Shown here: one piece after another, positions 3,237-56,426 of the stretch
Layout of the letters: each line of letters begins with the position of its first letter
How positions within the stretch are numbered: position 1 is the stretch's first letter
Virus record (IMG/VR): IMGVR_UViG_3300027891_000004
Coordinates: 32,001 to 96,000 of that record
From: a virus
Taxonomy: Duplodnaviria; Caudoviricetes
Length of the DNA: 64,000 nucleotides
Strand: one strand, 5' to 3'
Made by a program: the position numbers and the translations under genes
The notes under the pieces: generated by a model
The model's database searches: none
The model's input: the letters and a program-made list of their open reading frames with translations, nothing else
What the model was told of the DNA's origin: nothing

Positions 3237-3293
3237 TATTCAGTCTCCTTGTTAGCATAACTTTCTTTGAATTTCTCCCATTCAATGTTGAGC

Positions 3294-30490: not shown

Positions 30491-30514
30491 CAAGCATGGA
30501 TTCAAAAAGGCAAA

Positions 30515-30534
30515 AGCCCGCCACGTGGCGGGCT
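30515..30534 (-). terminator. palindromic intrinsic terminator after the tape measure gene
   Basis: AGCCCGCCACGTGGCGGGCT followed by TTT on the minus strand, 8 nt after the stop. Confidence 0.8.
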
Positions 30535-30542: not shown

Positions 30543-33500
30543 TCAATAGTTCCTGTTTGCCCCGCCCGCCAGTCCGGCCGGGCGGTTGTAATTGTTGGTC
30601 ACGTACTCATTGCGACCCTGCGGCATCATCGCTCGCTGTTGCGTGGCCTGGATCAATTGCGGCATAGAGGTTGTCAGGAACGTCATCAAATTCGCGTGTT
30701 GCAATTGCATATTACGGTCCATTGTGATCGTTGCATCGGCGGCGGGGTCCGTAACATGCCCGAACGCGGCGGCCTGTATCCGTTCCCACGTACCCTCCAT
30801 CGAATCCTTACCGCCCACGTCCTCACTAATCAGACCCCGGTACGTACCGCTTGCGGCCATACGGTCGGAGATCGCCTCGGCTATTTGTTTACTATTGTCC
30901 ATTTCCGCCCTTTGGTTGGCGTATTTCTCTTGGATTTGCGCCATTTCCGATTCGGTTACGCCGCGTTCTTTGGCCCGTTCGGTTTCGCGTTTCTCCTGCA
31001 CCGTTAAATCACGCGATTGCCGTTCGTATTGGAGTTCCCGGTTGCGTTTTTGAATCGCCTTCATCCAATCGGCACCGGTTTGCGCACCGGCCATATCGAC
31101 GGCGAATTGTGTATTGATATTCCCCTCGCGCCGTTGGGATTCGCCGCGTGTTTTTATCATATCGGCTTGGAAACTATCGGCTCTTTTCCTACGTTCGGCA
31201 TCAAGTTTTACCCTTTCTTCTTCAAGTTTTTGGGCGCGTTCCTGTTCTTTTTTTGACGCCGTATTTCTGGCTTCCCGTCTGTCGTCGGCTTCCATTTTTT
31301 GTCTTTTCTGTTTCGCGTCCAGATCGTCCTGCGCCATTTGATGTTGGCCTTTTTTGGTAGCTTGGTCCATAGCCAATTTACCCAATTGTGCTGTCCCTTC
31401 CTTGTAGCTTGCAGCCAACGTTTCCAGACTTGCCTTTTGATCGCCGTTATTGATGCCTAGTTGCTTCAATATATCTGCCAATATGTTGTTGCCCTGCATA
31501 GCTTGCGCAAGCTGCGCATCGCCCGCCGCGGCGGCGGCCTTCATAGCATCTGATATATCTGCGTTGGCTTCTTTGAGACCCTCTTTCATTGCTTCTTTCG
31601 CTTTGTCGTCTGCTACCTGTTCATCTGTCAGGCCGGGCGTTGTTTGAGAAGGTGGACCGCCACTTGTTACTGCGCCTGTCCCTGAAATCTCGCCCGGTTT
31701 CGCTTTCTCAATCTGCTCCTTAAAATAGTCGCGTATTTCAATAGCCGTTTTTTCATCGCCATCTTTTGAAAGCGCATTATTTATCATACCTTGTACTTTT
31801 TTGCGTTCCTCAGGACTTAAATCTGCCGTCTTAAGATAGGAAGCCATTCCTGTTGAAAGTTCTCTTGTCGCGGATGCCGCACTATCTTTCTCAGCAAACA
31901 AATTCCAACCGCTTCTTTCTTTATTGCTCTTATTTGCTTCTACAACGGTAGAACTATCCGCATACAATTTACGGAGTTCCTGCAAGTTTTTCAGTTGCTC
32001 AGGCGTTAATTCAGGCGTTTGTTCCTGTTGCCCCTGTTGTCCTTGCGTCTGCTGTTGCGGCGGCTGTTGTGGGACATTCGGGGTATTCGCCCATTGCTGC
32101 ACGTCCTCGCGGGCGGCCAATTCGCGCAGTTTTTCAACACGTTTATCGCCCGTCAAACCTCTGACTGCATCGTTAAATTCACTTATTTTCCCCTCTTTTT
32201 GGAAAAATGCTTGAAGGCTGCTCTCCAACTTTTGGCTACCTGCAGTAAACCCTTCCATTATTTCCCTTGCCAACGCTCTCTTGTCGTCGTCCGTAAGCTC
32301 TGCCTTGACCTTTTTCTCTGCCTCTGCTTCGGACATACCCTTGCCCATAAGGTCTTTTTTCTGCTGCTCCAAACTAGCGATAAACGCCTGATCGCGGCCA
32401 CCTCCTAAAGACGCCGATTGTGCTAGTGTTTTTTTCATTTGTTCCCAGCCCATATTTTCTATGGGTTTTGCCCACGTCGTAGGATCGGTCAGCGCGGCCG
32501 CTGCTTTCGCCTGTGCTTCTTCCATCTGCTTCCGGTATTCGACTTCTTTCTTGATATACTCCAACTGCATAGCGAACCGGATCGCCATCATTTGAAGTTC
32601 CAATTGGTGTTTCATCTCAACCATTTTCATTTCAAATTGGGCTTGATCTTCGTTCTGCTGTTGTTGGAGCGCGTGTTTTTCCTTCATCGCGGCATCGTCT
32701 TCCTGATTCTTTTCGGCGGTGTCCAACGTGGCCTGTCTCTCTTCCATTTTCGTGACAATCCGGTCGAATTTTTCGGCGATTTCAATAAGCTGCAAATCAC
32801 GCTGAATGTCGAACGGGGATTTGCCGTATGTGTCCATCGTTACGATTTGACGGTCCAGAACGCGGTCGAGCGTCCGTTGGAACAAATCGCGTTCTCGTTT
32901 CCGGTTCGCCAACACGGTCTCGAATGTTCGTATTTCGTTGTTCTTTCGCAACTTGTTGTACTCCACGGCCATATCGACCATTTTCTGGTGCAAATCAAGC
33001 GCGATCTTTTGTTCCAGATCGAACCGGGCCTTTTGGTACTCGGCTTCATGCTCAACGCGGGCCTCGAACATTGATTTTTCCGCTTCCAACCGTACCTCCA
33101 TTTCTCTTTTGGCATCTTCTCCCTGTAGAGCGGCGATACGCATCTGCGAGGCTTCGTACGCGACGAATTCCCGCTTCTGTCTACCGGCCCACTGCGAACC
33201 TCCGGACATATCTTTCCAATCGCCTGCCGACGCCGCGGCTTGCTTGGCCAAATCATGCAATTTATTACGGAATTCTTTCTCTGTGTTAATTTCGAGTTCG
33301 ATGCGCGCCTTTTTGGCGGCCTGCAGCTCTTTTTCTTTATCCGCCAATTCATTGGTCATTCTTATTTCTTCATTTTTCCATTTGTCAAATTCATCAAAAG
33401 CCTTCTTTTGATTTTCACGCGCCTTTTCAACTTGTGCTCGCACTTCCACGTACCGTTTGGCTATCCGTTCCTCGGTTTCCACGTACACGTTTCCTTTTTC

Positions 33501-36500
33501 ATCTGCGTACGTATACTTATTCCCTTGTTTAACGGCCCGTTTTTTCACGCCCTCAACGCCGCCCTCCCACACAGCTACAAGTTTCGCATCCATCGAGTTT
33601 GCAAGTTTATCAAACTCATTTTTGAACCTTTCATTCATTTGTTCTACACGTTCTTTAAACGAATCGGGGATTTCCCAATCTCCCGCGAGAATTACGTCAA
33701 GCGCGCCTTCATAGCTTTTGAACAACTCCTCGAATTTTGTCTTGACGGATTCCGCTATTTGATTGTCCCAGTTTTCCAAATCCGACTGTAACTTAGCTGC
33801 CTTTGCCTGGTCAATACCGGGCATCCCAAGAAAACCATGCCCCCAACTTCTTACGGACGCGCTTACCTCGTTGCTATACGTGTGGCCCTGCCCCGAGCGC
33901 AATTTGGGCAACAGATCGCCCTTCAAACTGGCGACGGCCAGACCAACAGCGCCACCGGCTACGGCTCCGATGGCCCCGCCAATAACCGCACCGAGGGGCC
34001 CTGCAGAAAGGCCAACGGCGGCTCCCAATTTAGCGGCAAAAGCAGAACTTGCGACTGCGGCAGTCAAACCTGTGGCAGTGGCCGTAATAATACCTGCCCC
34101 AGCGCCGATCCCCACAGCTCCGGGCATAATACCCGAATCTCCGTGCAACCCCTCACGCCGTGCCGCCTGTTGCTGCTTCCAATGCTCCATTTGTTTTTCA
34201 AACCTTTCGCGTACCTGCTGCACGCCTTTCTGCTTAACCTGGGCATCTTCCTGCGATTTTTTACGACGCTCATCAATATCAAGCAGCCGACGTTGGGCAG
34301 CCAAATCTGCCGCCGTCATCGTGAGGCTATCGGCGGCCATTTTCTCACGATTCCTTGCCCTCAATTTTTCCATATTGAACTCGGCCTGCATAGCGGCCAG
34401 CCGCAGTTGCGATTCTTGTTGGACCGCCAGTATACGCATTTCAGAAAGCTGTTTATTGAGCAGCATTTCTCTTTTATACGCCTCGTTTCTACGCTTTTCC
34501 CATAACGACCAAAAAGACGCGATTCCAGCCGCGATTAGCCCTACCCCCACCAAAATGCCTGTAGTGGCGGCAGAACCGCCAATTTTAGCAAACCGGCCGC
34601 CGCCCGACTCTGCCAGGGCTACATTGGCTGCATTTTGCGTCCCTACTCGTTGCGCTCCCGTCTGGAAAGCGTCCTTCGCCGCCTGCGGAGCCTTAGACTG
34701 CGCGAGCACGCTATCCGTATATTTTTTTATATCTTTAGTGTACAAATCCCCCACGATTTTCGTCAAATCGCCGCCCCTCTCGGCAACGATCTTTTTCCCC
34801 TGCGCAAGCGCCGACTGCATTGCCTTTTCGGACGCCGCCTTAAATTGGGTCATATTCACGCCAGCATCTTTGGCAAGCCCGGCAAGACCTGCTATGCCTT
34901 TCTTAGCGTTTCCAAACGCGAGAATGGTATCCAAAGATTTACCGGCGTTCGTCATGGTAGTCATAACGTTCTTCATACCCATCAGGCCCGCGCTTGCCTG
35001 ATCGACAATTTTTAGAAAACCATCGGGAATAGGAACGCCGAACGCTCGCATATCGCGCATCGTTTGGTTCACCTTGCCCAACGCGCCGTGCAGACGTTCG
35101 ATAGAGCCAACGGCGGATTTGAATTTAGTGATTTCCGTATGCAGTTTTTGGAAATCGCCCCGGATCGAAACGGCCTGTTGCCCCAACTCCTTTTGCTTCT
35201 GGATCAGCGCATCGAACTGTTTGACCTCCTCCGGCGTAATAATGCCCAAAGATTCCTTCTGTTCCATCTTCTTGATTTCATCCCCTATATCTTTGGCTTT
35301 TTCCCTTACCTCATCCATTGAAGACGACAATTCAACGAACTTTTCCTGCATAGCGATAACGGTAGCCGGGTCCAACGTCCGGGAAGGATCGATACCCGCT
35401 ATAGCGCCATCAACTTCCCCCAAAGCATCCGCAACGCCGTCCAACTGACTCTGTATACCATCCGTATCCAACGACAAACGAAGATCGCCGCTGGTTAGCG
35501 CATCAATCTGTTCTTTCGTCATTTTCGCGCCGGTGCCCAATTGCCGGGTAACATCGAGTATTTCCAACAGCGAGGTAGGGGGCGCACCGTCTGATTTAGA
35601 GATAGCCTGTATAGTGGCAATCGCGTCGCCCATATCGAACGCGATGTCGCGGGCCACCCGTTGCGATTCCTCGCCGACCTCAACAATATGCTTTTTCAAA
35701 TTCTCGTATACACCTGCAGTATCAATATCGGAGACGGACACGCCCGCCTTGTTTGCGCTCTCCTCAAACTTAGCCATCGCCGCGTTGACAGTATCAATTC
35801 CCGCCTTCCCATTCTGAAAATCGGCCAGCGCAGCGTTAAGCATCTGGAACGCCGTCGATACCTGTTTGCCACTTTTGGGGATCGCCTTAATCGCCTCGTC
35901 CATTTTCCCGGCTTCGGCGGCGTACTGAGTAAATTCGGACACGGGCAATTTCATGCCGCCGAGTTCTTCCAGTTTCTTCCGGTACTTTTCAACTTTTTCA
36001 ATGTCCGCGTCGCTAACAAGAGCACCCGTCGATTGGATGTCTTTGAACGATTGTTGCAATTGTGGCGGGAGTTCCAATTTTTCCAATTTGCCGCCGATAG
36101 TTTCGACGTACTTGGCGAACGTTTGGGTGGATATACTACCCTGATCTAATTTCTCTTTTGCCCCGTCCAAGATGGTCAGCAGGCGTTCGGCTTCCGCCTT
36201 ATCGCCGAAATCCAATTCAAAACCCTGCAAAGCGTCTTTTGCCGTCTTGAACTTTTGCTCGAATTCAGTCAAATTAGACTTGGCGTTCGAGAGCATCTTT
36301 TCAATCTCGGCGTCGGCCTCTTTCAACTTCTCCGTCAGCCCGCTGGAAGAGATCGCCGTGTTCATACGGCTAAACAACGAACTGACAAGCGTAGTCATCG
36401 ATTCGGCGACTTTTCCGGCCTGCTCCGTCATACCGTTATTCATAAGGAGCATGAACTGTTCGATCTGGCCCTTAATCGCGCCGGTATCCGTCTTGAACTG

Positions 36501-36794
36501 CATCGAGAGCGCAGGCTGCGATTTGAGTATCTTGTCGAACATGTTCATCGCCTTCGTAGCAAACGCGGCCAGTTCGCGTTCGTCTACCTTAGAATCCTTC
36601 GTGAAAAGCTGCAACGATTCCTTTTCATTAAAGAATTTCTGGACCTGCGCCACTGTCCTTTTCAAGTCTTTATCGTCCGTAGAGAAACCTACCTTGATAT
36701 TAGAGGCGGCGGTGGCGAGCGCGTTTGTTAGCTGTTTAACCGCGTCTTGAAAAAGCAACTTAACCTGCACATCTACTTCGGGCGTCTTTGGCAT
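30543..36794 (-). CDS. tail tape measure protein
   Basis: 2083 aa, Ala/Gln/Lys/Glu-rich and helical, with central Gly/Ala hydrophobic segments; lies between chaperones and tail-tip genes. Confidence 0.9.
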   Translation of the reverse strand: MPKTPEVDVQVKLLFQDAVKQLTNALATAASNIKVGFSTDDKDLKRTVAQVQKFFNEKESLQLFTKDSKVDERELAAFATKAMNMFDKILKSQPALSMQFKTDTGAIKGQIEQFMLLMNNGMTEQAGKVAESMTTLVSSLFSRMNTAISSSGLTEKLKEADAEIEKMLSNAKSNLTEFEQKFKTAKDALQGFELDFGDKAEAERLLTILDGAKEKLDQGSISTQTFAKYVETIGGKLEKLELPPQLQQSFKDIQSTGALVSDADIEKVEKYRKKLEELGGMKLPVSEFTQYAAEAGKMDEAIKAIPKSGKQVSTAFQMLNAALADFQNGKAGIDTVNAAMAKFEESANKAGVSVSDIDTAGVYENLKKHIVEVGEESQRVARDIAFDMGDAIATIQAISKSDGAPPTSLLEILDVTRQLGTGAKMTKEQIDALTSGDLRLSLDTDGIQSQLDGVADALGEVDGAIAGIDPSRTLDPATVIAMQEKFVELSSSMDEVREKAKDIGDEIKKMEQKESLGIITPEEVKQFDALIQKQKELGQQAVSIRGDFQKLHTEITKFKSAVGSIERLHGALGKVNQTMRDMRAFGVPIPDGFLKIVDQASAGLMGMKNVMTTMTNAGKSLDTILAFGNAKKGIAGLAGLAKDAGVNMTQFKAASEKAMQSALAQGKKIVAERGGDLTKIVGDLYTKDIKKYTDSVLAQSKAPQAAKDAFQTGAQRVGTQNAANVALAESGGGRFAKIGGSAATTGILVGVGLIAAGIASFWSLWEKRRNEAYKREMLLNKQLSEMRILAVQQESQLRLAAMQAEFNMEKLRARNREKMAADSLTMTAADLAAQRRLLDIDERRKKSQEDAQVKQKGVQQVRERFEKQMEHWKQQQAARREGLHGDSGIMPGAVGIGAGAGIITATATGLTAAVASSAFAAKLGAAVGLSAGPLGAVIGGAIGAVAGGAVGLAVASLKGDLLPKLRSGQGHTYSNEVSASVRSWGHGFLGMPGIDQAKAAKLQSDLENWDNQIAESVKTKFEELFKSYEGALDVILAGDWEIPDSFKERVEQMNERFKNEFDKLANSMDAKLVAVWEGGVEGVKKRAVKQGNKYTYADEKGNVYVETEERIAKRYVEVRAQVEKARENQKKAFDEFDKWKNEEIRMTNELADKEKELQAAKKARIELEINTEKEFRNKLHDLAKQAAASAGDWKDMSGGSQWAGRQKREFVAYEASQMRIAALQGEDAKREMEVRLEAEKSMFEARVEHEAEYQKARFDLEQKIALDLHQKMVDMAVEYNKLRKNNEIRTFETVLANRKRERDLFQRTLDRVLDRQIVTMDTYGKSPFDIQRDLQLIEIAEKFDRIVTKMEERQATLDTAEKNQEDDAAMKEKHALQQQQNEDQAQFEMKMVEMKHQLELQMMAIRFAMQLEYIKKEVEYRKQMEEAQAKAAAALTDPTTWAKPIENMGWEQMKKTLAQSASLGGGRDQAFIASLEQQKKDLMGKGMSEAEAEKKVKAELTDDDKRALAREIMEGFTAGSQKLESSLQAFFQKEGKISEFNDAVRGLTGDKRVEKLRELAAREDVQQWANTPNVPQQPPQQQTQGQQGQQEQTPELTPEQLKNLQELRKLYADSSTVVEANKSNKERSGWNLFAEKDSAASATRELSTGMASYLKTADLSPEERKKVQGMINNALSKDGDEKTAIEIRDYFKEQIEKAKPGEISGTGAVTSGGPPSQTTPGLTDEQVADDKAKEAMKEGLKEANADISDAMKAAAAAGDAQLAQAMQGNNILADILKQLGINNGDQKASLETLAASYKEGTAQLGKLAMDQATKKGQHQMAQDDLDAKQKRQKMEADDRREARNTASKKEQERAQKLEEERVKLDAERRKRADSFQADMIKTRGESQRREGNINTQFAVDMAGAQTGADWMKAIQKRNRELQYERQSRDLTVQEKRETERAKERGVTESEMAQIQEKYANQRAEMDNSKQIAEAISDRMAASGTYRGLISEDVGGKDSMEGTWERIQAAAFGHVTDPAADATITMDRNMQLQHANLMTFLTTSMPQLIQATQQRAMMPQGRNEYVTNNYNRPAGLAGGANRNY

Positions 36795-37030: not shown

Positions 37031-38197
37031 ATGCCCACGCAAAAGAAACAAAAAATGACGCCAGAAAACGATTTCCGTGAAATACTCCAAGAGACATTCC
37101 AAAAAATTGCACACGCGGCCACAGAAAATGAAAAACACTTAAAAAAACAAGAGACCAACAGCAGCATGACCGAGACGGAAACGATCTCTATACTGATCGA
37201 GCCGCTTATTACCATACTGGGGTACGACAAGAACGATCTTCGGGAAATCAGACAAGAATACACAGCAAAAAAGCAAACAACAAAAGGGAACAAAAGAGTA
37301 GACATTGCGATTCTCCAACGGCAGGATGGGAAAGCAATAATGGTCTGGGAATGCAAGGCAAGAAGAGTGCCGCTCGGCAACTCAGGGGTTTCGCAGCTTA
37401 GGGGATACTTTAAAACTCATAGGGCTGCCATTGGCGTTCTTACAAACGGCATCCACTACCAGTTCTACACAAACATCGACAACCCCGAAAGTAACGAAAT
37501 GGACAACGAACCTTTTCTGGAATACAACACAGGCAATAGTCTACCTCCCAATCAACTTGATGTTTTTGAGTACCTTAGAAAAGACAAGTTTAATCTGAAA
37601 CAAATACACGAAATAGGAAAAGAACAAAAGGACATCAACAGGATCAAACGGGTACTATACAGCCTTTTTTTGGAAACAGGCCCAGACGAATTTTACCAAA
37701 TAACAGCGGCAATGGCCAAACTCGGGAAAGGACTCGCCGAATCAAAACAGATTATCAAATCCGCCTTCATACGCATGGTAGAAGACGGCGTAATCCCAGC
37801 CGAAAGCACAGGAATTTTATACAAGGAAAAATTCGACGAATGGAAAACCAGTTTGTCAGAAACGACCGTGAAACTTTTTGAAAAATTAGAAAAGTACGTG
37901 TTAAGTCTCGAAAATGTCAAAACAAACCTTTCAAGTGCGTACAAAAGCTACGCGGCCCGCAAACAATTCATGCAAATGATGTACTGCGGCGGAAGAAAGA
38001 AACTAAGAATTCTACTGCTGGGATTGAACGTAGAAGAAATGGGAAAAGCCAAAAAATCATTGGAAAACACAGAGATACAATATCACGGCAAAGAACTTAG
38101 ACTCTTTATAGAGAACGAGGACAATTTGGAGAGAGCCAAACCGATTATTGAAAGAGCATACGAAAAAGCATACGAAAAAACGACAAAAAGAAAATAG
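37031..38197 (+). CDS. HsdR N-terminal (PD-(D/E)XK) nuclease domain protein with DUF5655-like C-terminus
   Basis: LIEPLITILGYD...EY...RVDIAI...ECK...QLRGYF...GVLTNGIHYQFY. Confidence 0.85.
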   Translation: MPTQKKQKMTPENDFREILQETFQKIAHAATENEKHLKKQETNSSMTETETISILIEPLITILGYDKNDLREIRQEYTAKKQTTKGNKRVDIAILQRQDGKAIMVWECKARRVPLGNSGVSQLRGYFKTHRAAIGVLTNGIHYQFYTNIDNPESNEMDNEPFLEYNTGNSLPPNQLDVFEYLRKDKFNLKQIHEIGKEQKDINRIKRVLYSLFLETGPDEFYQITAAMAKLGKGLAESKQIIKSAFIRMVEDGVIPAESTGILYKEKFDEWKTSLSETTVKLFEKLEKYVLSLENVKTNLSSAYKSYAARKQFMQMMYCGGRKKLRILLLGLNVEEMGKAKKSLENTEIQYHGKELRLFIENEDNLERAKPIIERAYEKAYEKTTKRK

Positions 38198-38982: not shown

Positions 38983-39633
38983 TTAAATCGAAGCCGGAGA
39001 TTCATTGATTTTTTTGAGTTCTTCGACGCTCTGTTCCATCCGGTCCAAAGCGTTCATTGCTTCTTGGGCCATCGCGGACGAGCCGCCAGCCACTTTTTCT
39101 TTAATGTCTTCTCGCAACAGGTCGGCCATTACTTCGTCGGGTTCGCCGTCCGCGTTTACCGGGGTATTGATTTCTACAATTTTTTCGATGAGCGTATCTA
39201 CATCGGGCTGTATCTCGCCTGTATTGGTAAGCGAGAGCATCTTTCCTAGCAGGTCCATACCTTCCACGTTCACAAAACCTTCGGGGAACAGCATATCACG
39301 GAATTGCTCGAACGTGAACGGCGGATTTTGGATCATCTGATACATCAGACGGGACATCCCGTAGGCACTCCCAAAAAGGATGTCACGCCCGTCCCCGTAT
39401 TGGAACGTTAGTTTTGCACAATAGGCCAGCGCCGCCATAAGCAACTCCTGCTTTTCAACCGCGTTCATACCGTCGGTAGCGAGCGTTACGTTCTTCATAT
39501 ACTGTTGCCGTACCCAAACGTCGAGTTCTTCGTAATCCTTCGCCGTTATATGCTTGAGGATAACGGGGGTCCCGTTCGGCAATGTGAACGGATGTGCAAC
39601 GGTACGCGGGTCAACTTGTTTTTCTTCTGACAT
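38983..39633 (-). CDS. tail assembly chaperone (gpG-like)
   Basis: PFTLPNG..VILKHIT.KDY.ELD.W pattern; upstream of the tape measure gene; paralog of 44815..45576. Confidence 0.65.
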   Translation of the reverse strand: MSEEKQVDPRTVAHPFTLPNGTPVILKHITAKDYEELDVWVRQQYMKNVTLATDGMNAVEKQELLMAALAYCAKLTFQYGDGRDILFGSAYGMSRLMYQMIQNPPFTFEQFRDMLFPEGFVNVEGMDLLGKMLSLTNTGEIQPDVDTLIEKIVEINTPVNADGEPDEVMADLLREDIKEKVAGGSSAMAQEAMNALDRMEQSVEELKKINESPASI

Positions 39634-39644: not shown

Positions 39645-39683
39645 TTGCTAAGGGCTATCGGGGCGACGGTTCCAAATATGGCT
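39645..39683 (-). repeat. 39-bp copy of the 3' end of the Lar-like gene (40531-40569)
   Basis: 38/39 identical; encodes SHIWNRRPD(S/N)P-stop. Confidence 0.9.
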
Positions 39684-39692
39684 GCCATCCTC

Positions 39693-40058
39693 TTAATCTT
39701 TTCCTAAACTGTCATTATCATCCTGGATAATATCGGTTTTAATGTTGTGGATTGCCGTTCTGCCTTCCGGAGCGCATCGAGAACTGAACGCCTGTACAAT
39801 TTCTAAGCGAATGTAGCGGTATGGGCACATCTGTTCCGCTTCAAGTTCCGGCGGCATCAAAACATTTTCAACGTTGAATGCGGCTATGCGGTCGTTGTGT
39901 TTCACAAAATTGCGTATCGTTACCTGCAATTCGTCGATAACCAATTTGTCGCCCCGGACAAACATTTCAACAAACTCATCTATTGACCGGACATCCCAAA
40001 TCGTACAACCGGGTAGCGTCCAACCTCTGGGCGGCCTTATTGTTATTTTAATTTTCAT
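39693..40058 (-). CDS. leaderless partner of 40055..40474
   Basis: ATGA overlap with the leader gene. Confidence 0.65.
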   Translation of the reverse strand: MKIKITIRPPRGWTLPGCTIWDVRSIDEFVEMFVRGDKLVIDELQVTIRNFVKHNDRIAAFNVENVLMPPELEAEQMCPYRYIRLEIVQAFSSRCAPEGRTAIHNIKTDIIQDDNDSLGKD

Positions 40059-40474
40059 TGTGATCCGCCATATTTTTCTTTAAAATAATCATCGTATTGG
40101 ACAATATCTGATATTGTATAAACGCCCAATTCCATTAGCTCTTTTTTTCTATCTGCGTAATCATCTTTCCGTTTATCAATCATCGACATCATCGCCTTAT
40201 TAAGGTGCTGTTGAATTCTATCGCCGTCAGTTGGCATCCTTAAACGCCGCGATTCTTCGATAACTTCCTCTTCTAGCCCTAGAATAATATCTTTTTGTTT
40301 TTCCGCATCCCATTCGTTCCACGGTTGTGGTTTGCCTATAAACTCAGCATTATCAACCGTTGCGCCTTCGGTCGTGTTTTCCTCTTGAAACGCTGACATA
40401 TTGCCGCTACCACCGGCTTTGCCCGTTTCAAGCAATTCATTGAAACTACTCGCTACTCTCATTTTATGTTTCAT
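40055..40474 (-). CDS. type-B leader plus unknown helical cargo
   Basis: MRVASSFNELLETGKAGGSGNMSAFQ...TVDN. Confidence 0.8.
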   Translation of the reverse strand: MKHKMRVASSFNELLETGKAGGSGNMSAFQEENTTEGATVDNAEFIGKPQPWNEWDAEKQKDIILGLEEEVIEESRRLRMPTDGDRIQQHLNKAMMSMIDKRKDDYADRKKELMELGVYTISDIVQYDDYFKEKYGGSQ

Positions 40475-40533
40475 TCAAAAAAGTAACAAACGCAAACATC
40501 CGTAGTATGCCTGTTCCTATTATTTATCTGTTG

Positions 40534-40851
40534 CTAAGGGTTATCGGGGCGACGGTTCCAAATATGGCTCACGTACTGCAACACGTTTTTAATCGAAACT
40601 TCATTATCTGCAGCACAATCGTGGTATGTCCGTAACAAACAAGGAAAACAAGCAACGTGGAAGTAATGGGGGTCTGCGTTAGACGGCGTATAGCTGTAAA
40701 CAACATACACATCTGTTTTTCCGCATTTAGGACATGGCAGCAATTCGCTCTCTGTCTGTCGGATTAAACGCTTTAATTCATAAGCATCCTCCAAATCGTC
40801 CAAAGAGTATCGCAATTTTTCAGGAATATTTTGTTTTATTGTCGTTTTCAT
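40534..40851 (-). CDS. Lar-family (restriction alleviation-like) Zn-finger protein
   Basis: LLPCPKCG...V.C..C...WNRR. Confidence 0.8.
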   Translation of the reverse strand: MKTTIKQNIPEKLRYSLDDLEDAYELKRLIRQTESELLPCPKCGKTDVYVVYSYTPSNADPHYFHVACFPCLLRTYHDCAADNEVSIKNVLQYVSHIWNRRPDNP

Positions 40852-40869
40852 GTTTTTCTAACAACAGTG

Positions 40870-41199
40870 CTATTCAAACCAGCCGTGCCCGTATTTCCAT
40901 TTGCCAAAACCATGCGTATTCTTAAATTGATCCGCCTGTTCTCTTGTAATTGACCGATAGCCTTCAAGAAAAAACGGATTGCCTTCAGAACCCGGTTCTG
41001 TTACAACAATGTCATACCCATCTCTATCCTGCGCAATATACAGCGAAATATCATAAAAAGATACGGGAGATAAATCCTCAACGGGCTTTTCTCCGGTCGG
41101 CATATTCTCCACTGAAACAGATTGAAACGCTGACATATTGCAGCTGCCACCGGCATTGCCCGTTTCAAGCAATTCATTGAAACTACCCACTACTCGCAT
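40870..41199 (-). CDS. type-B leader plus cargo X
   Basis: MRVVGSFNELLETGNAGGSCNMSAFQSVSVEN-MPT...; cargo similar to those of 50525 and 47795. Confidence 0.8.
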   Translation of the reverse strand: MRVVGSFNELLETGNAGGSCNMSAFQSVSVENMPTGEKPVEDLSPVSFYDISLYIAQDRDGYDIVVTEPGSEGNPFFLEGYRSITREQADQFKNTHGFGKWKYGHGWFE

Positions 41200-41255
41200 A
41201 ATATGTCCCTTTCAAAAAGAGTAACAAACGCAAACGTCTACGGTATGCCGGATTT

Positions 41256-42365
41256 TCATTCATTTCCCGCCTTGAAATTATACAACGGTTTTATTATTTT
41301 GACAACTTCCATCGTATCGCGGCTGTTCTCGATAATCTCGTTCATCGGCTTGTACGCCTGCGGTGCCTCGTCAATAGTCGCCCGGTTCACGGTGGACGAA
41401 CAGATTCCTTTCATCGATTTCTCGTATTCGATTAGCGTGATCTTTTCCTTCGCCTCTTTGCGGCTCATTACACGCCCGGCACCGTGCGGAGCCGAAAAGT
41501 TCCAATTGGCGTTCCCCTTCCCTACGCAAAGGAGGCTACCGTCCCGCATATTCATAGGCACCAATATACAGTCGCCGCTTCGGGCCGATACCGCACCTTT
41601 TCGTAAGATCATCGCATCCAAATCAATGTAATTGTGTACGACGGAAAACGTATCGACGATCTTGAACTTCGCCTGTTTTGATATGTCGCGGGCAATGGCC
41701 CGTCGGTTTAAGTCGGCGTATTGTTGGACGATGCCCATATCATGTAAATAATCGGACATCGGGGAGCCTTCCAAGTAGGCCAGTGCCCTATCGTCGCCTT
41801 CCTTTGTCCGACCCAACGTGTCGGCGGCCACGTTCTGATAATAGTCGCAAACCTGTTTGCCCAGATTGCGACTTCCGGAATGGACAATCAAATAGAGCTG
41901 TCCGTCATCGTCTTGCCCCAATTCAATAAAATGGTTCCCTCCGCCGAGCGTGCCCATTGAATGGGACGCACGGTGTAAATCGACGTGTTTTACGCATTTC
42001 AATTCAAATAAATCAATATCCTCGTTGAAATGATGCGGATCGTGTCGGGTGTTAAAACCAGCGGGTATGTTTTTTATAATCGCCTTGTCGAGTTGGTTTG
42101 GATCGACCCGTTTCTCCTTTATCAACGCGACGAACATCCCGCAACAACCGTCCGTCCCCACTAAATTGGGGACAATCTTATCCGTAATCGTCATGGTCAT
42201 TCCGACCGTACCGACCTGCCCGCTGTGGACATCGGGCATTACGCGGATTTGGCTTCCTTCGACAAATGGCTGGTTCAGGATATGCCGAATCTGCGCAATT
42301 GCGCCGGGTTCGGTGGTATCCGTGAATATCTTTGCCGTATTGTATGTTCCTTGTAATTCAATCAT
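41256..42365 (-). CDS. rtcB: RtcB-family RNA ligase
   Basis: MPDVHSG, GTLGGGNHFIE, HSGSR, HNY, RKGA, SAPHGAGR, DEAPQAYK. Confidence 0.97.
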   Translation of the reverse strand: MIELQGTYNTAKIFTDTTEPGAIAQIRHILNQPFVEGSQIRVMPDVHSGQVGTVGMTMTITDKIVPNLVGTDGCCGMFVALIKEKRVDPNQLDKAIIKNIPAGFNTRHDPHHFNEDIDLFELKCVKHVDLHRASHSMGTLGGGNHFIELGQDDDGQLYLIVHSGSRNLGKQVCDYYQNVAADTLGRTKEGDDRALAYLEGSPMSDYLHDMGIVQQYADLNRRAIARDISKQAKFKIVDTFSVVHNYIDLDAMILRKGAVSARSGDCILVPMNMRDGSLLCVGKGNANWNFSAPHGAGRVMSRKEAKEKITLIEYEKSMKGICSSTVNRATIDEAPQAYKPMNEIIENSRDTMEVVKIIKPLYNFKAGNE

Positions 42366-44814: not shown

Positions 44815-45576
44815 TCAATTTGTTTTTTCTTTTTCGGCGTTCTTTTCGGCAAGCCACGCGAAGTATTCATCGGGGCTACTGAACTGTATTTGGCCTGCCT
44901 TCGGGGTGGGGAGCGGGGCCGAGTTTGCGTCTTTCCTGGTCTTGTTCGCCAGCTTATTCAATTCTTCAAGATGCGCTATTTCTTCGGGCAACAAGCGTAG
45001 CATCCAATGTATTTGATAACTCGTCAAATCAAGAATTTGGTCAACCGTCCAACCGTACTTTTCGGCCAACCCTTTGAAGATACGGGCCACGTTTTCGTCA
45101 GGAGTCGATTCGACACGCGGACTATCACTCTCAGGCTGCGGCGGATCGGGCGGGAGCGGGCAAAAAGTAGCTTGTTGCATCTCCGCGAGGAGCAACCGCG
45201 AGGTTTCGGAGATGCCGTTCGGAAAAAACAGCTTTTTTAGCTTTGCATCGGCCCACGCTGGTGCGTCGCGGATAAGCAACTTAATAAAACGAACCAAATA
45301 ATCAATATGAGAATATAAAAACTCATGGCCGATACCTACTTGGAAATCAAAGTCTTCGATTTTATTCAACGCAAGATCAACAAACTCGGCACGTTCGCTT
45401 TCGGGCACCAACTTAATCTGATCGTCAAACTGTTTGGCATACTTGTATTTAAGCCACGTATTGAAATCAATAAGATCGCGTTGTCGCAAAGGGTATACCC
45501 ATAGCGTATGCCGGTCCAATTCGTAGGGGACCGGCGATTGCGACATAGCCGATTTGTGCGTGTACGGTAAGATCAT
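44815..45576 (-). CDS. tail assembly chaperone, gpGT-like
   Basis: N-terminal half paralogous to 38983..39633; C-terminal LAEKYGWTVDQILDLTSYQI resembles gpT/gpE' segments. Confidence 0.7.
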   Translation of the reverse strand: MILPYTHKSAMSQSPVPYELDRHTLWVYPLRQRDLIDFNTWLKYKYAKQFDDQIKLVPESERAEFVDLALNKIEDFDFQVGIGHEFLYSHIDYLVRFIKLLIRDAPAWADAKLKKLFFPNGISETSRLLLAEMQQATFCPLPPDPPQPESDSPRVESTPDENVARIFKGLAEKYGWTVDQILDLTSYQIHWMLRLLPEEIAHLEELNKLANKTRKDANSAPLPTPKAGQIQFSSPDEYFAWLAEKNAEKEKTN

Positions 45577-46948: not shown

Positions 46949-47386
46949 CTAATCCTCTCGTAACAGCTGTTGCCTTGCCTGCTCATCTTGCCAATCTTTT
47001 ACAAAACCATTTCTGTTCTTTTTAATGTGTTTTTTGATGTCGCTTACAATAGGGGCAGGTATGCCATTATTTTCGGCCAACTCGACAACGGCCTGACCAT
47101 TGTATTCAAGCCAAAATTTTGCTTTTCCTTCCGGCGTATAGACGTGAACGTGCATAGGTTCTGTTCTGCCGCCATGCTGTTCTTCGTCAACGTAAACAGA
47201 AAATGAAAAACCACGAAATGGCGGCGTATTCTTTGATTTGGGCGACATATTGCCGACAACGGCACTTTGAAATGCACCTGACAACTTGGAAACTGCCGCA
47301 CCATCATTAAACATGGACATTTCGCTTCGAGGCATATCCCAGTTCCCCAACGATTCAAACATTGATATATCAGCCAACCTTTCCAT
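46949..47386 (-). CDS. type-A leader fused to a DUF4160 (HicA-like/DhiT) toxin domain
   Basis: GFSFSVY..E.H...EPMHVHV....GKAKFWL...W; leader MERLADISMFESLG...MSMFN...AFQ...VVGN. Confidence 0.85.
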   Translation of the reverse strand: MERLADISMFESLGNWDMPRSEMSMFNDGAAVSKLSGAFQSAVVGNMSPKSKNTPPFRGFSFSVYVDEEQHGGRTEPMHVHVYTPEGKAKFWLEYNGQAVVELAENNGIPAPIVSDIKKHIKKNRNGFVKDWQDEQARQQLLRED

Positions 47387-47418
47387 TATTCTATCTTTCT
47401 TCGTGATTCGGCGAGTTG

Positions 47419-47802
47419 TTACTCTTGGAGATACCTACGATTCCATGATTCGCATATACGTCTTAGAGATTCTTTGAAATCTTCTTCATCGTCTTCCGCA
47501 TACCATGTTACTGTTTGCATACCGCATTCTGGATTGCTGCAACTAGCGTATAATCCATGAGGATTTATTGTAAATTCCACGCCGTAAGTGCCATCTTCTT
47601 TTTTCACGCTTCGTCCACCATTTTTTCCGGGATAAAAGGCGTATTCAATACGAGGCTTTTCCTGCCCACAATTTGCGCACGGTAACAATGAAACCTCAAA
47701 CGGTTCTATTAACGCTAGAATTTCGGCTTCATTTTCCAACATGCAGGCATAAAAACAAGCGGCAGAACCGGGCTTGAATTCTGGGGTCAATTTACTATTC
47801 AC
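47419..47802 (-). CDS. Lar-family Zn-finger protein
   Basis: LLPCANCG...C...CG...WNRR; paralog of 50108 and 40534. Confidence 0.8.
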   Translation of the reverse strand: MNSKLTPEFKPGSAACFYACMLENEAEILALIEPFEVSLLPCANCGQEKPRIEYAFYPGKNGGRSVKKEDGTYGVEFTINPHGLYASCSNPECGMQTVTWYAEDDEEDFKESLRRICESWNRRYLQE

Positions 47803-48199
47803 AGCTCACCTCTTCATTTTCAAATTTTACCAAACCTTCTATACTGTCGCCCCAAGTAGAACCGGAACGAACGCGGTTTATGTATTGTAACGCCTCTGCC
47901 CGGTCCGTAAAAGGCGATCCTTGTACAACAAATGAATCTTCCATCGGGTTATCTGGGTTTGTCGCAATTATATCCAAACCTTTGCCTTCCGGATTTTTTC
48001 GTAACGAAAATTTATACTGTTTTCCGGTCATCTTGCTTTTAGGCTTACTAAAATTTGGCGACATACTATCTACGATGGCATCTTGAAAAATCTCCGACAG
48101 GCGAGCAACCGCACCACTATTAAACATGGACATTTCGCTTCGAGGCATATCCTCGCTCCCCAACGATTCAAACATTGATATATCTGCCAACTTTTCCAT
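47795..48199 (-). CDS. type-A leader plus cargo X
   Basis: MEKLADISMFESLGSEDMPRSEMSMFN...IFQ; YKFSL...GLDIIATNPD. Confidence 0.8.
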   Translation of the reverse strand: MEKLADISMFESLGSEDMPRSEMSMFNSGAVARLSEIFQDAIVDSMSPNFSKPKSKMTGKQYKFSLRKNPEGKGLDIIATNPDNPMEDSFVVQGSPFTDRAEALQYINRVRSGSTWGDSIEGLVKFENEEVSCE

Positions 48200-48237
48200 A
48201 GCAGTATGCAAAAAAAGAAAAAATACTGATCAAAATT

Positions 48238-48772: not shown

Positions 48773-49291
48773 TTACTTTTGTTGTGCGTAGTATTGCATC
48801 GCTTCCTCTTTGGTAGCGAATTTTGGCATTTCTTTTTTCGGTTGCGCCGTCCCGCCGGGCAATTCTACGGGTTTGAAAGCGTCGCCGCCCAACAGGTACG
48901 TATTGCCCAAAAACGACTTGGCTATCGCCGCCTGTTTTTTCATCAAGCGGTCATGCGCTTTCGGATCGTCTTTAACCTGTTCGCCTTCCTGTCGTATCTC
49001 GCGGCTAACTTCGCCGACCCCGGCTTTCATAGTATCGACCGCGTTATCGATTTCCGGGCGGATCGATTTGTATGTTTGCTGCGCCTGCCGCACTTCCTGC
49101 TCGTTTCGGGAATGCCAAATATCCTGCTGCGTTTCGTAGACTCCGCGCAAACCGCCTTTCAATATCTCATAGGCGCGGTCCATCGATTGGAGCGTCTGGT
49201 CCAATTCGGGCGAATTGAAGCATGACATAGCAGATACCCCGCCACGTGGCGGGGTATCCAATAATTCGTTAAATGAATTTACAACTCGCAT
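48773..49291 (-). CDS. type-B leader plus unknown helical cargo
   Basis: MRVVNSFNELLDTPPRGGVSAMSCFN; ATG 2 nt after the upstream stop. Confidence 0.8.
   Translation of the reverse strand: MRVVNSFNELLDTPPRGGVSAMSCFNSPELDQTLQSMDRAYEILKGGLRGVYETQQDIWHSRNEQEVRQAQQTYKSIRPEIDNAVDTMKAGVGEVSREIRQEGEQVKDDPKAHDRLMKKQAAIAKSFLGNTYLLGGDAFKPVELPGGTAQPKKEMPKFATKEEAMQYYAQQK
49233..49258. repeat. 26-bp palindrome inside leader coding sequence
   Basis: GATACCCCGCCACGTGGCGGGGTATC. Confidence 0.9.
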
Positions 49292-49646: not shown

Positions 49647-50069
49647 TCACTTTCGTAAAAGTTGTTCCCGGTACGCTTGGTAGCTTTCGGGCGTTAGGTT
49701 CAGGTAACGGAGCATTTCCTGCGAAGGCGTCTCCGTTTTTCTAATCGCATCCTGTACTTGCAACATCCCCTTTTCGCGTGAGGCTCGTTCGGCGCCCCAA
49801 TCGTCATACGGATCATCCTGCCGGTCCCCGGCGGCGTCGCCCGTAGCGAAATCGGGGTAGACCCGCTTGATCGTTTTGGCTACATCGCGTGGGTGCATCC
49901 GACCCCCGTCGTCCAAATAAGAGAGCATATCGGGCAGGGTAGTGCCCTGGAACGCGGCGTTTACGCTCACGGCGCGCAGGCTACGGTCATCAAACGTAAA
50001 CATAGCGGGTATGCCAAATGCCGCGTTCTGTTGCGTCTGTAGCTGCGAAAATAGTGGGATACTGTCCAT
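49647..50069 (-). CDS. type-C leader plus unknown cargo
   Basis: First 41 aa identical to 50525..50887 (MDSIPLFSQLQ...VNAAFQ). Confidence 0.8.
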   Translation of the reverse strand: MDSIPLFSQLQTQQNAAFGIPAMFTFDDRSLRAVSVNAAFQGTTLPDMLSYLDDGGRMHPRDVAKTIKRVYPDFATGDAAGDRQDDPYDDWGAERASREKGMLQVQDAIRKTETPSQEMLRYLNLTPESYQAYREQLLRK

Positions 50070-50107
50070 TTCAATTTATAGGCGTTGACGTTACTACAAC
50101 AGTATGA

Positions 50108-50506
50108 CTACTTACCTGTCCTTTTATTCCATGCGCTGCAGACGCGCCTTAACGCTTCTACAAAATCGTCTTCGGTATCTTCGGCATTCCACACTCTTGT
50201 TTGGATTCGGCAATCTTCAATATCTGAGGGCGGATCAGTAGCAGCATTTCGGCAACACACAACATACAACTCATGCGGGCATTCCTTCATGGGGATTTCG
50301 CCGTTTGGTTGCAGCTGAGTTGGGAACATATTACCGGGGCGGTACATGTAATGTACATGCGGACGATCATTTCCGCAATGCGCACAGGGCAGCAAGGTGG
50401 CATCAGCCTCGTTAATGAGGGTAGCTATTTCGGACTCGTTTTCAAGCTCGTACAAAAAACAACGAGTACGGCCATCACAATTGCCTGTTTTTAGTTTTGT
50501 ATTCAT
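50108..50506 (-). CDS. Lar-family Zn-finger protein
   Basis: LLPCAHCG...PH.LY..C...C...WNKR; GAGG RBS. Confidence 0.8.
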   Translation of the reverse strand: MNTKLKTGNCDGRTRCFLYELENESEIATLINEADATLLPCAHCGNDRPHVHYMYRPGNMFPTQLQPNGEIPMKECPHELYVVCCRNAATDPPSDIEDCRIQTRVWNAEDTEDDFVEALRRVCSAWNKRTGK

Positions 50507-50524
50507 TATTGCACCTCATAAAAG

Positions 50525-50887
50525 CTAAAATAAGTACCCCCACTTATCAAACTTATGCGTATTTTTGAACGCGATTGCTTCTTGAGCCGTTATATTATCC
50601 ATATCTTCGATATACGCTGTTTGTTTGCCGCCATCGGGGTCTGAAACGGCAATCCCACACCTGTCCGTTCCTTGAACAGGGTGTAGCGAAAAAACGTAAT
50701 GTCTGTCTGGACGCAATTCTGATAAAGAGATTAAGCCGCTCGGAAAGTTTTCTACGGAAACGTCTTGGAACGCGGCGTTTACGCTCACGGCGCGCAGGCT
50801 ACGGTCATCAAACGTAAACATAGCGGGTATGCCAAATGCCGCGTTCTGCTGCGTCTGCAACTGCGAAAAAAGAGGGATAGAATCCAT
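50525..50887 (-). CDS. type-C leader plus cargo X
   Basis: Leader followed by SVEN-FPSG...YVFSL...FKNTHKFDKW. Confidence 0.8.
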   Translation of the reverse strand: MDSIPLFSQLQTQQNAAFGIPAMFTFDDRSLRAVSVNAAFQDVSVENFPSGLISLSELRPDRHYVFSLHPVQGTDRCGIAVSDPDGGKQTAYIEDMDNITAQEAIAFKNTHKFDKWGYLF

Positions 50888-51260: not shown

Positions 51261-51605
51261 CTATCTTTGCATAAGAGCTTGTTTGATACTTGCCACATCC
51301 TGCTCCAAACGATCAAATCGCGTATTTGTGTCGTTATGCAACCGTTCTATTTTTGCGTCTACGTTTGCGAAACCGTTCTTTGTAGCAATTTCCAAATTAT
51401 CAATTCGGGCTTCAAGGCCATCGACCCGCTTGCTCAAATTCTGGCCCCATTGTGGCATAGGAAGGTTACCCTGGACGGACGCGGGGGAACCGACGGGGTT
51501 CACGCCCGGCGCGTTCTCAATCGTATTGAACGCGCCCAAATTCGACAATCCGACGTTTCCGGTTCCAAGCGATTCAAACATCCCAATATCTGCGAGTTTT
51601 TCCAT
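51261..51605 (-). CDS. type-A leader plus coiled-coil cargo
   Basis: MEKLADIGMFESLG...LGAFNTIEN; paralog of 49294. Confidence 0.8.
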   Translation of the reverse strand: MEKLADIGMFESLGTGNVGLSNLGAFNTIENAPGVNPVGSPASVQGNLPMPQWGQNLSKRVDGLEARIDNLEIATKNGFANVDAKIERLHNDTNTRFDRLEQDVASIKQALMQR

Positions 51606-51634
51606 AATTATCACTTCCGTAAAAGTTGTATTTG

Positions 51635-53183: not shown

Positions 53184-54878
53184 TTAAGCCGCCATTTTGA
53201 ATTCATCGCCATCTTCTTCCAAACGCGACGCTTCGTCGGCGACGATAAGTTTCTTCAATTCCGGCGACATGTCCAACAAAAACGGGTACCGGGACGCCAG
53301 CGAATGGAGCTGCGCAAGGTAGACACGTTTCATATCGTCCGACGATTCGCCCAGGTACATCGCCATAGCGTTCCGCGTCTCGGCGAATACCTCGTTCATC
53401 GCCTTCGTAAACGCGGTATCTACGCTTTTTCCGCTTATCGCGTCCGCCCCGTCATCGGTAGTTGACTGGGCGATCCGCGTAGCATCGGGCAACGAATCGG
53501 CTTTGGAATCCCCGTACTTTTTAATATGGGACAACACGGCGGCCTGCGCCGCCTTCAATTCCACGTCAAGGTTTTCCAACTCACGCAAGTCGGCGGGATC
53601 GAGCGGTTTCTTAGCCTTGAGCAATTTTGCGTTCTTTTCCTCCAACTCCGCGATCCGTGTCCGAATGTCTACTGCAATAGCACGCAACCGCTTGCGCTCC
53701 GCATTCTTTTTTTCAACCTCTTCACTATCGAACGAACCCTTCGGTCGCCCGGTCGAGGCCGACTCCCACAACCCGTCCTCAGTCTGCCGGAACTTAAACC
53801 CGCCACGCGCGTCGTTCAGAAGGTTCAGAATCAACGCCTCATTGAATGAGGTAACGAGTACCTGTGCCGCGTTTCTTAATTTCTTAACCGTACTTACGAA
53901 CAGGTCTTCACCCTCTTCCAAATCGTCGGAGGCCACGATTTCGGGGTTATCCTGCATCTCCTCACGAGCGGGCACCTCCTCAAGAACAATTTCGGGCGTG
54001 TCCGGCATAGCTTCGGACAAACTTGCCACTTTCGCGGGACCTGTCGGCGGCTCAATTGTGATTTTGTAACCCTCGGCTGTTGTAAACGATTGCACGCCGG
54101 GCATGACCGGGCCCGCGCCCATTGATTCCAAAGGCGGCGCGACGGCTACTTTTATTTCTGTATGCGCCGTGCCGTGCGCATTCGCGTTTTTCGCATCGGT
54201 GTGTCCCTGTTCTTCTCTAAAAAGTCGTGTAGATTCCATAACCGGCGACCCCGCAAGATAATCATTGTTGATGTACGTAGTAATGATATTCAACGTTTCT
54301 CCCGCTTTCATTTCTTTTCGTTCGTTAATGAGCAACCCGGCCCCATCCGATAGGCTACAAGCGCCCTGTTTACGGGGCAGGATAGCGAGATGGTCGGCCC
54401 GGATGTTGATGATACGCCCGATATACGGTTCGCTATTCCATACGCCCTCATCCATGATGAGTTCGGAGAACAGACCGGTCGATATTTCCATCGGGAGCCG
54501 GTGTTTGATATGCTCAAGCAGGGTAGGGCACTTCTCCTCGGCCTTGCGTCTATCGATCCACGCTTCGGCCTTGAGCTTACCGTCCACAAAATGCGTATTC
54601 ATAATCATCCCGACCGCCTGCCGCTTGTAGACTTCGAGATCGGTCGCCGTATCGCCCCGGAACGGATGTTCGATTACGACGGGCTTGAAATTCCACATTT
54701 TGGGCGTTTTTGCCAACTCTTCGGTATCGTAATAAACGGGCCCCTGCGAGCCGGTATGGACCCCTTCGAGGATCATCGTCATCGGGGCGACGACGTATTC
54801 ACGGTCGTCAAGCGTTTCGTACCGAACCGTCGGGTCGATAGTTACGTTCCAAATGGTTTCTATTTTGTTGCGTGGCAT
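53184..54878 (-). CDS. DUF2213-type prohead maturation protease with long C-terminal region
   Basis: EGVH.G..G...Y..EEL...WN.KPVVIEHP, EISTG, DHLAILP...GACS..DG.GL. Confidence 0.9.
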   Translation of the reverse strand: MPRNKIETIWNVTIDPTVRYETLDDREYVVAPMTMILEGVHTGSQGPVYYDTEELAKTPKMWNFKPVVIEHPFRGDTATDLEVYKRQAVGMIMNTHFVDGKLKAEAWIDRRKAEEKCPTLLEHIKHRLPMEISTGLFSELIMDEGVWNSEPYIGRIINIRADHLAILPRKQGACSLSDGAGLLINERKEMKAGETLNIITTYINNDYLAGSPVMESTRLFREEQGHTDAKNANAHGTAHTEIKVAVAPPLESMGAGPVMPGVQSFTTAEGYKITIEPPTGPAKVASLSEAMPDTPEIVLEEVPAREEMQDNPEIVASDDLEEGEDLFVSTVKKLRNAAQVLVTSFNEALILNLLNDARGGFKFRQTEDGLWESASTGRPKGSFDSEEVEKKNAERKRLRAIAVDIRTRIAELEEKNAKLLKAKKPLDPADLRELENLDVELKAAQAAVLSHIKKYGDSKADSLPDATRIAQSTTDDGADAISGKSVDTAFTKAMNEVFAETRNAMAMYLGESSDDMKRVYLAQLHSLASRYPFLLDMSPELKKLIVADEASRLEEDGDEFKMAA

Positions 54879-56333: not shown

Positions 56334-56426
56334 GATACTGCCACGCCTTTCCTGCTTTGAACAATAGCCACAATATGCCAAAAACAAACGAAAAGATCAA
56401 GACGTTCTGAAAACGAAACAGCCGCG

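Follow-up and report, generated by a model that had tools for sequence, protein, structure and literature searches.

The stretch analysed here, referred to as the window, comprises 64,000 nucleotides (bases 32001-96000) of the 167,820-base IMG/VR virus record IMGVR_UViG_3300027891_000004, which is estimated to be 94% complete. On its minus strand, within the structural region of the phage genome, lie two tandem units that begin alike, end alike and differ in between. Unit 1 (41249-40531) consists of an upstream block, a protein leader (leader B), a small cargo gene designated X and a gene for a Lar-like zinc-ribbon protein. Unit 2 (40511-39645) consists of the same upstream block and leader B, followed by a different cargo gene (cargo2), a different partner gene (partner2) and a remnant of the 3′ end of the Lar-like gene. 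The reading that we favour, and consider rather probable, is that the X/Lar frame was kept and its interior swapped for cargo2-partner2, a candidate capsid cargo with its predicted binding partner.

Results

Shared ends of the two units

At the 5′ end, 41122-41249 matches 40385-40511 at about 87% identity, the 128 aligned columns including 12 mismatches and 5 gaps; a repeat search, pairwise alignment and blastn agree on this block. The block is made up of about 50 nucleotides upstream of the ATG and 26 leader codons, and its homology ends exactly past the Gln codon of ...NMSAFQ. Its upstream repeat forms the non-coding 5′ region of unit 1 (41200-41249, minus strand) and aligns pairwise to 40463-40511 on the same strand. 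Leader B itself occupies 41122-41199 in unit 1 (26 codons, MRVVGSFNELLETGNAGGSCNMSAFQ) and 40385-40462 in unit 2 (MRVASSFNELLETGKAGGSGNMSAFQ), both on the minus strand; the copies differ at 6 of 78 nucleotides, and 4 of the 6 differences change a residue. The homologous start of the second copy is the ATG at 40462, at which public gene calls also begin (P0002, 135 residues).

At the 3′ end, the last 11 codons of the Lar-like gene, its stop codon and 3 further nucleotides (40531-40569, minus strand; SHIWNRRPDNP-stop) recur at 39645-39683 on the same strand (SHIWNRRPDSP-stop), with 38 of the 39 positions identical. At up to three mismatches these are the only two matches of the 39-mer in the window, against 0 expected in 100 shuffles, and no further copy was detected in the 168-kilobase genome. 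The 39-mer encodes the conserved WNRR C-terminus of the protein of 40534-40851 and aligns with two other Lar-like paralogues. In unit 2 no Lar body is left ahead of it, and it falls within the 59-nucleotide gap between the stop of partner2 (39693) and the start of the next gene (39633). Because it has this position and no Lar body before it, 39645-39683 is, judged by sequence, a non-coding gene remnant of Lar. A tblastn match of Lar to the longer interval 39651-39734 (E 0.006) was discarded, as it is due to the 39-mer alone and Lar homology extends no further.

Both the two-unit layout and the copy of the Lar 3′ end at 39645-39683 had been described in an initial annotation of the window. All coordinates of that description hold: aligning the units gave the 128-nucleotide 5′ and 39-nucleotide 3′ matches, and the latter proved to be a unique pair in the window.

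Leader B belongs to a bipartite family of the form F-x-x-L ... (M/L)-(S/G)-x-F-(N/Q), which is found on about 20 genes of the genome, mostly near the gene for the head maturation protease (53184-54878; phrog_530, phrog_12864, phrog_2229). The upstream repeat contains only a weak sigma-70-like match (9/12) whose -10 element overlaps the ATG, and it is therefore not regarded as a demonstrated promoter; neither repeat contains a stem-loop. The sequence GGCATAC, with which the upstream repeat begins, was rejected as a specific motif, with about 60 occurrences in the genome. As a separate observation, a palindrome, CCCGCCACGTGGCGGG, resembling a terminator or a site motif, is present between genes at 5395-5424, 30503-30532, 49224-49253 and 56415-56444, and one copy lies within the coding leader of a type-B gene starting at 49291 (...DTPPRGGVSAMSCFN).

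The unrelated interiors

Between the shared ends, the 552 nucleotides of X and the Lar-like gene in unit 1 are unrelated to the approximately 700 nucleotides of the cargo2 body and partner2 in unit 2.

X (40870-41199, minus strand) encodes a leader-B-tagged protein of 109 residues with no match in Pfam, PHROGs, NCBIfam or PADLOC. It has two paralogues in the genome, 50525-50887 (41% identity, E 6e-15) and 47795-48211 (28%, E 0.06). The gene that follows X (40534-40851, minus strand) encodes a zinc-ribbon protein of 105 residues that scored 25.3 bits with PF14354 (cut-off 28.6) and 26.5 with TIGR03655 (cut-off 39.6), and matched phrog_599 at E 1e-5; of its two paralogues, 47419-47802 reached 18.1 bits and 50108-50506 gave no match. 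Since these scores are under the Pfam and NCBIfam cut-offs for membership of Lar_restr_allev, we name the protein Lar-like only. Residues C40, C43, C68, C71 and W98-N99-R101 are invariant in the three paralogues, and the Lar models cover their W-N-R/K-R motif. Each X paralogue is directly followed by a Lar-like gene, so X and the Lar-like gene constitute a conserved pair, which occurs behind three leader subtypes (B, C and A).

In unit 2, cargo2 (40055-40474, minus strand) encodes leader B and a 109-residue helical body of a rare family. Partner2 (39693-40058, minus strand; 121 residues) has no leader, and its start overlaps the cargo2 stop codon (ATGA). Neither gene matches a family in Pfam, PHROGs, NCBIfam or PADLOC, and word-index homologue searches with partner2 and with the cargo2 body returned only the proteins themselves. 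An exhaustive HMMER search found about nine true homologues of partner2, with 33-57% identity; a tenth match, a 3236-residue repeat protein (P0007), was judged spurious and excluded from the alignment. Homologues of cargo2 (P0013/P0016, equal to 3464-3886 of contig L002, P0014 and P0015) carry another leader, MSEIDQFLQ...GYNTSFQN. As the other leader-bearing homologues have this different leader, leader B on cargo2 would be resident and not native to it.

A portable cargo2-partner2 module

The metagenome contig just mentioned, L002 (5791 nucleotides), comes from a related phage, because its type-A leader gene is 93% identical over 43 nucleotides to 51565-51607 of the window and because it has the CCCGCCACGTGGCGGG palindrome in common with it, in three copies (2312-2331, 2827-2849 and 5031-5057). 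Its gene order is cargo2a (3464-3886), a fusion of partner2a and cargo2b (3883-4584) and partner2b (4581-4970), with an ATGA overlap at each of the two junctions. The first cargo, cargo2a, stands behind the different leader. The second, cargo2b, is leaderless and fused in frame to partner2a, and at the seam it retains just Asn-Phe-Gln of a leader, the presumed leader boundary. The fusion protein (P0003, 233 residues) thus has a partner2 domain followed, as its C-terminal half, by a cargo2 domain with 38% identity to cargo2 residues 42-137 (E 8e-16); such a fusion was met on this contig alone. The contig is collinear with window positions 40210-39711, at 65% nucleotide identity, across the cargo2/partner2 junction.

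Altogether, cargo2 and partner2 occur together three more times, behind the other leader or none. On these sequence comparisons, the cargo2-partner2 pair is a real, foreign and portable module. The initial annotation had proposed that cargo and partner move together and had suggested looking in other genomes for the pair without a leader. Both suggestions were borne out on L002, where homologues of 40055 and 39693 are adjacent twice with the same ATGA overlap and where the leaderless copy is the one fused to a partner.

Two further open reading frames of this contig lie upstream of the pairs: one of 94 residues (2517-2801) with a VapD/Cas2-type resemblance by eye, and one of 70 residues (3255-3467) with a resemblance, also by eye, to excisionase-type helix-turn-helix proteins.

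Recombination joints

The left joint is sharp. Identity between units 1 and 2 stops at the closing Phe-Gln codons of the leader, cargo2 begins to resemble its homologue in L002 near the same residues (NMSAFQ versus NTSFQN), and the boundary is the same as in other leader families of the genome. On the right, members of the partner2 family end in ...DDxDPLKSPxAExxRR and the protein of unit 2 ends in ...DDNDSLGKD-stop, about 10 residues shorter. Since homology to the partner2 family extends to 39705 or beyond and resemblance to Lar sets in at 39683, the right-hand joint lies within 39684-39705 (minus strand). A frameshift was considered as another possible cause of the short C-terminus of partner2. 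Separately, the Lar remnant, 9 nucleotides downstream of the TAA stop of partner2, continues the partner2 reading frame (39684-39695), an agreement with chance odds of one in three that may be accidental; EDGSHIWNRRPDSP would be added to partner2 by read-through or by a fusion of the two frames in an ancestor.

Predicted binding of cargo2 by partner2

AlphaFold2 (AF2) modelled partner2 as an alpha/beta domain with a predicted local distance difference test (pLDDT) score of 91 and a predicted template modelling (pTM) score of 0.84. No convincing solved relative was found: Foldseek against the PDB gave E values no better than 0.2, and a wide VIA-align comparison returned generic alpha/beta resemblance only (best Z 5.5, many tied ferredoxin-like rows, GhoS at Z 4.3). 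The ESM Atlas yielded nothing usable on either cargo2 or partner2. Modelled alone, cargo2 had a pLDDT of 49, too low for a fold search; its leader was disordered, and residues 51-77 and 84-115 formed a helical hairpin. In complex with partner2 its pLDDT rose to 83.

Three runs of the complex gave an interaction prediction score from aligned errors (ipSAE) of 0.82, 0.83 and 0.84, compared with 0.00 for the best of three controls, with 100% contact agreement and a partner pLDDT of 89-90. Of 80 solved complexes, 58 attain the ipSAE mark, and of 110 mismatched pairs, 2 do so; these counts apply only roughly to the present model, which used custom alignments. In the modelled interface, cargo2 hairpin residues 59-109 face partner2 residues 11-18 and 69-103; cargo2 residues 86-87, 90, 94 and 101 and partner2 residues 72, 75, 77, 85, 89 and 101 are among those involved. 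Because partner2 has no solved relative and cargo2 no known family, this result is unlikely to echo a solved complex. The model supports binding of the cargo2 body by partner2, and the natural fusion P0003 may be noted beside it.

Recurrence at other X-Lar loci

The order leader-X-Lar-leader-Y is found three times in the genome, and each time the next gene has the leader subtype of X, with 89-96% nucleotide identity. At the present locus (unit B) the leader pair is 41122-41235 and 40385-40497. At unit A (46949-48211), with the X-Lar pair 47795/47419, it is 48109-48199 and 47296-47386 (92% over 91 nucleotides), and at unit C (49647-50887), with the pair 50525/50108, it is 50766-50879 and 49948-50061 (96% over 114 nucleotides). 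The leaders of different units cannot be aligned with each other as DNA. The downstream gene of unit A encodes a DUF4160 domain and has 72 N-terminal residues in common with X. In unit C the shared part stops at Phe-Gln, so that units B and C both have sharp Phe-Gln ends. Neither the upstream repeat nor a Lar 3′ remnant is present at units A and C, and the 3′ scar is still visible in unit B only. Because all three X+Lar pairs precede a gene of the same leader subtype, the process is a recurrent one, in which either the leader-bearing unit is duplicated locally or the leader guides recombination, and the body is then exchanged.

Genome setting

Immediately upstream of unit 1 lies an RtcB RNA ligase gene (41256-42365, minus strand; PF01139, E 5e-66), whose stop codon is 6 nucleotides ahead of the 5′ repeat. 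Downstream of unit 2, a tail-module gene (38983-39633, minus strand) encodes a protein of 216 residues with no family match in Pfam, PHROGs or NCBIfam, and it is a weak paralogue of 44815-45576 (22% identity, E 1e-6). These two paralogues, which sit upstream of the tape measure gene (30543-36794), bracket an accessory island of about 5 kilobases holding both leader-B units together with RtcB, tRNA-Met and several small open reading frames. Its GC content is 40-44%, compared with about 50% in the flanking genes. A lone plus-strand endonuclease gene (37031-38197; phrog_4225, E 2e-35), with tail-module genes on one side and the tape measure gene on the other, has the appearance of a homing-type insertion. 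The major capsid protein (59873-61024, phrog_771) has its nearest phage matches among siphovirus capsid proteins, at 25-32% identity, and not in T4.

Viral contigs were searched for relatives, both of the phage and of the locus, with the 216-residue flank protein and RtcB as queries, with exact 26-28-mers of both repeats and with alignments of partner2, cargo2 and X, and no close one was found. Genome contigs searched with the partner2 alignment gave no match.

Discussion

The initial annotation had explained unit 2 by tandem duplication followed by replacement of the interior. The second half of this proposal has stood. As unit 2 has both X-Lar-type flanks around a foreign interior, replacement of that interior, or an equivalent recombination, is well supported by the alignments. 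The first half, in which duplication came first, is less secure in view of the unequal divergence of the 5′ and 3′ repeats and of the spacer between the units, as set out below.

According to the reading that we favour, unit 2 has kept the 5′ region of an X/Lar-type unit, its leader and the last 39 nucleotides of its Lar gene, and everything between was exchanged for the foreign cargo2-partner2 module of about 700 nucleotides. The frame itself would be a local duplicate of the X-Lar unit with leader B. Homology for recombination on the left would have come from the conserved leader, and the right-hand joint, which took some 10 codons from the end of partner2 and left no more than 11 codons of Lar, would be illegitimate. 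In the producing cell, partner2 would bind the helical hairpin of cargo2 as a chaperone or neutraliser. The leader would direct cargo2 into the assembling head, where the head protease (53184-54878) would remove it. Cargo2 and partner2 would be translationally coupled and inherited only as a pair.

Several observations weigh against this reading. The coding 5′ repeat is more diverged (17 of 128 positions) than the non-coding 39-mer (1 of 39, or 97% identical; Fisher p = 0.076), a pattern less easily explained by a single simple duplication than by a more recent duplication at the 3′ end or by a leader that came from a donor. The 19-nucleotide spacer from unit 1 to unit 2 (40512-40530, minus strand) matches neither outer flank; a homology of the spacer to the 3′ end of RtcB was too weak to call. 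No close relative was found, and the ancestral single-unit state was never seen. The adjacency of the pair elsewhere depends on one contig, L002. On another contig (L003, 1043 nucleotides), positions 3-581 hold two tandem partner2 copies with no cargo2 between them, so the partner2 family can evidently expand by itself. Finally, the phage is uncultured and its sequence comes from one metagenome assembly.

Because of the 5′/3′ divergence and the spacer without a flank match, insertion from a donor or a crossover between alleles fits these features about equally well. In an insertion, a donor segment of about 850 nucleotides, comprising the spacer, its own leader-B 5′ region, cargo2 and a truncated partner2, would have entered the end of Lar through two staggered illegitimate joints that duplicated 39 nucleotides of Lar, and each leader-B copy would stem from a different phage, the two being orthologues and not local duplicates. 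Two joints suffice for this, and it accounts both for a 3′ repeat of 38/39 beside a 5′ block of about 87% and for a spacer unlike either outer flank. However, a leader other than B is found on all known relatives of cargo2, and the same leader subtype after three out of three X-Lar loci would not be expected from random illegitimate insertion. The same-subtype neighbours at three loci therefore point to local duplication or leader-guided recombination, and we consider an insertion unlikely, though worth keeping in view.

A joining of two alleles is less likely again. Two alternative cassettes of one site in the population, leader-B-X-Lar and leader-B-cargo2-partner2-Lar remnant, would have been brought into tandem by unequal crossover or by integration of a mini-circle excised between leader repeats, in which case the replacement would be real and earlier than the tandem state. 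The direct repeats of 128 and 39 nucleotides are substrates for such exchange, T4-type phages are documented to form mini-circles from one short repeat to another (PMC2839356), and the same-leader neighbours at three loci suit leader-guided integration. Against this, the same replacement is still required, together with an extra step.

It is improbable that the 39-mer is a functional element, such as a terminator, a regulatory RNA or a recombination site, kept after cassettes and hence no scar. Its identity of 97% is high for a non-coding position, but no RNA structure was predicted for it (z -0.49 and +0.41), it has no Rfam match and no terminator-like site, only two copies exist in the window, it is absent from the cassettes that follow the two remaining Lar genes, and the copy in unit 1 is plainly Lar coding sequence with the WNRR motif. 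Least probable of all is an assembly artefact in which the assembler joined variants of a single locus from two strains one behind the other, for although the record is a single assembly and repeats flank both units, this is no simple bubble, the 3′ repeat of unit 1 leading to a unique spacer and a diverged (87%) leader instead of the shared right flank, and the same layout is present at two other loci.

The favoured reading, exchange of the interior within a retained X/Lar frame, has parallels in several known systems, though we do not assign the genes to any of them. In T-even phages, the capsid targeting sequence (CTS) alone is conserved and the bodies of the internal proteins form a diverse anti-defence set (PMC3012670). 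Like the T4 internal proteins (IPI, IPII, IPIII and Alt), the genes described here place a short leader on unrelated, diverse small proteins encoded near head genes, and the phage has about 20 leader genes together with a prohead protease (53184-54878), as expected of a T4-type leader. Compared with the T4 CTS, the leader here has greater length, a bipartite structure and a Phe-Gln or Phe-Asn end, and its packaging and cleavage are putative. The cargos are also accompanied by an untagged, translationally coupled partner, whereas the T4 proteins are not. We know of no sequence relation between the leader and the T4 CTS, the two sequences not having been compared directly.

A second parallel is provided by the CdiA-CT/CdiI and Rhs-CT/RhsI polymorphic toxins of the contact-dependent growth inhibition (CDI) and Rhs systems, which have displaced 'orphan' modules (PMC3150448). 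There, as here, a constant N-terminal part ends at a short motif (VENN or PxxxxDPxGL in those systems, Phe-Gln in the present one), and a variable C-terminal part is swapped together with its partner gene, with scraps of the old module left downstream. The joint exchange is reflected in the position of the pair, which stands behind leader B in the window and behind another leader in L002, with the Phe-Gln boundary in both. The present system differs in belonging to a phage, in the small size of its proteins and in having no secretion apparatus; no secretion genes were found in the window, and neither cargo2 nor X matched a toxin family. Moreover, its remnant is 39 nucleotides of a partner gene and not an orphan pair. 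The likeness to polymorphic toxins is, as an analogy, one of logic and not of membership.

In type II toxin-antitoxin modules, as in the cargo2-partner2 pair, two small overlapping genes encode products that bind, here as a prediction, and leader-tagged HigB-like and DUF4160 genes elsewhere in the genome likewise have partners. The pair differs from such modules in that the tagged gene comes first and partner2 has no DNA-binding domain, and neither gene matched a toxin or antitoxin family. The protein of 40534-40851 resembles the Lar restriction alleviation family (PF14354 / TIGR03655) in its CxxC zinc ribbon and C-terminal WNRR and in being matched full length by the models; it departs from the family in a 35-residue N-terminal extension conserved in the three paralogues and in being always paired with X.

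The promoter early stem-loop (PeSL) cassettes of T4-type phages, in which short repeats flank accessory genes in a plastic region (PMC2839356), are comparable as regards the repeats, which serve as substrates for insertion, deletion and replacement between core genes. A PeSL element is a non-coding promoter with a stem-loop terminator, whereas most of the present 5′ repeat encodes the leader and its 3′ counterpart is a gene remnant devoid of structure; the promoter-like match of 9/12 lies over the start codon and there is no stem-loop, so the repeats are not counted among the PeSL elements.

A broader interpretation can be offered tentatively, as a possibility that we rate below an even chance. 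The genome may encode a phage polymorphic effector system in which the leader acts both as a putative capsid ticket and as a recombination handle, and in which effector-neutraliser pairs are swapped between phages; the present locus would preserve one such swap, its two scars still readable. Partner2 and cargo2 would then represent a new effector/immunity (or effector/chaperone) family, and the fusion protein may enter the head bound to the tagged copy and be released at Asn-Phe-Gln.

The junction map presented here provides a concrete, datable case of modular exchange within a phage structural operon, and cargo2 and partner2 constitute a new two-protein family with a predicted, directly testable interface. 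Should the leader act as a capsid-loading tag, a Phe-Gln/Asn leader boundary followed by an untagged coupled gene would be a sequence rule for recognising, in phages that have not been cultured, the effectors that are packaged and the proteins that neutralise them. The locus would then also show a phage renewing its injected arsenal by placing complete modules of cargo and partner behind a constant leader, as bacteria renew their CDI/Rhs toxins.

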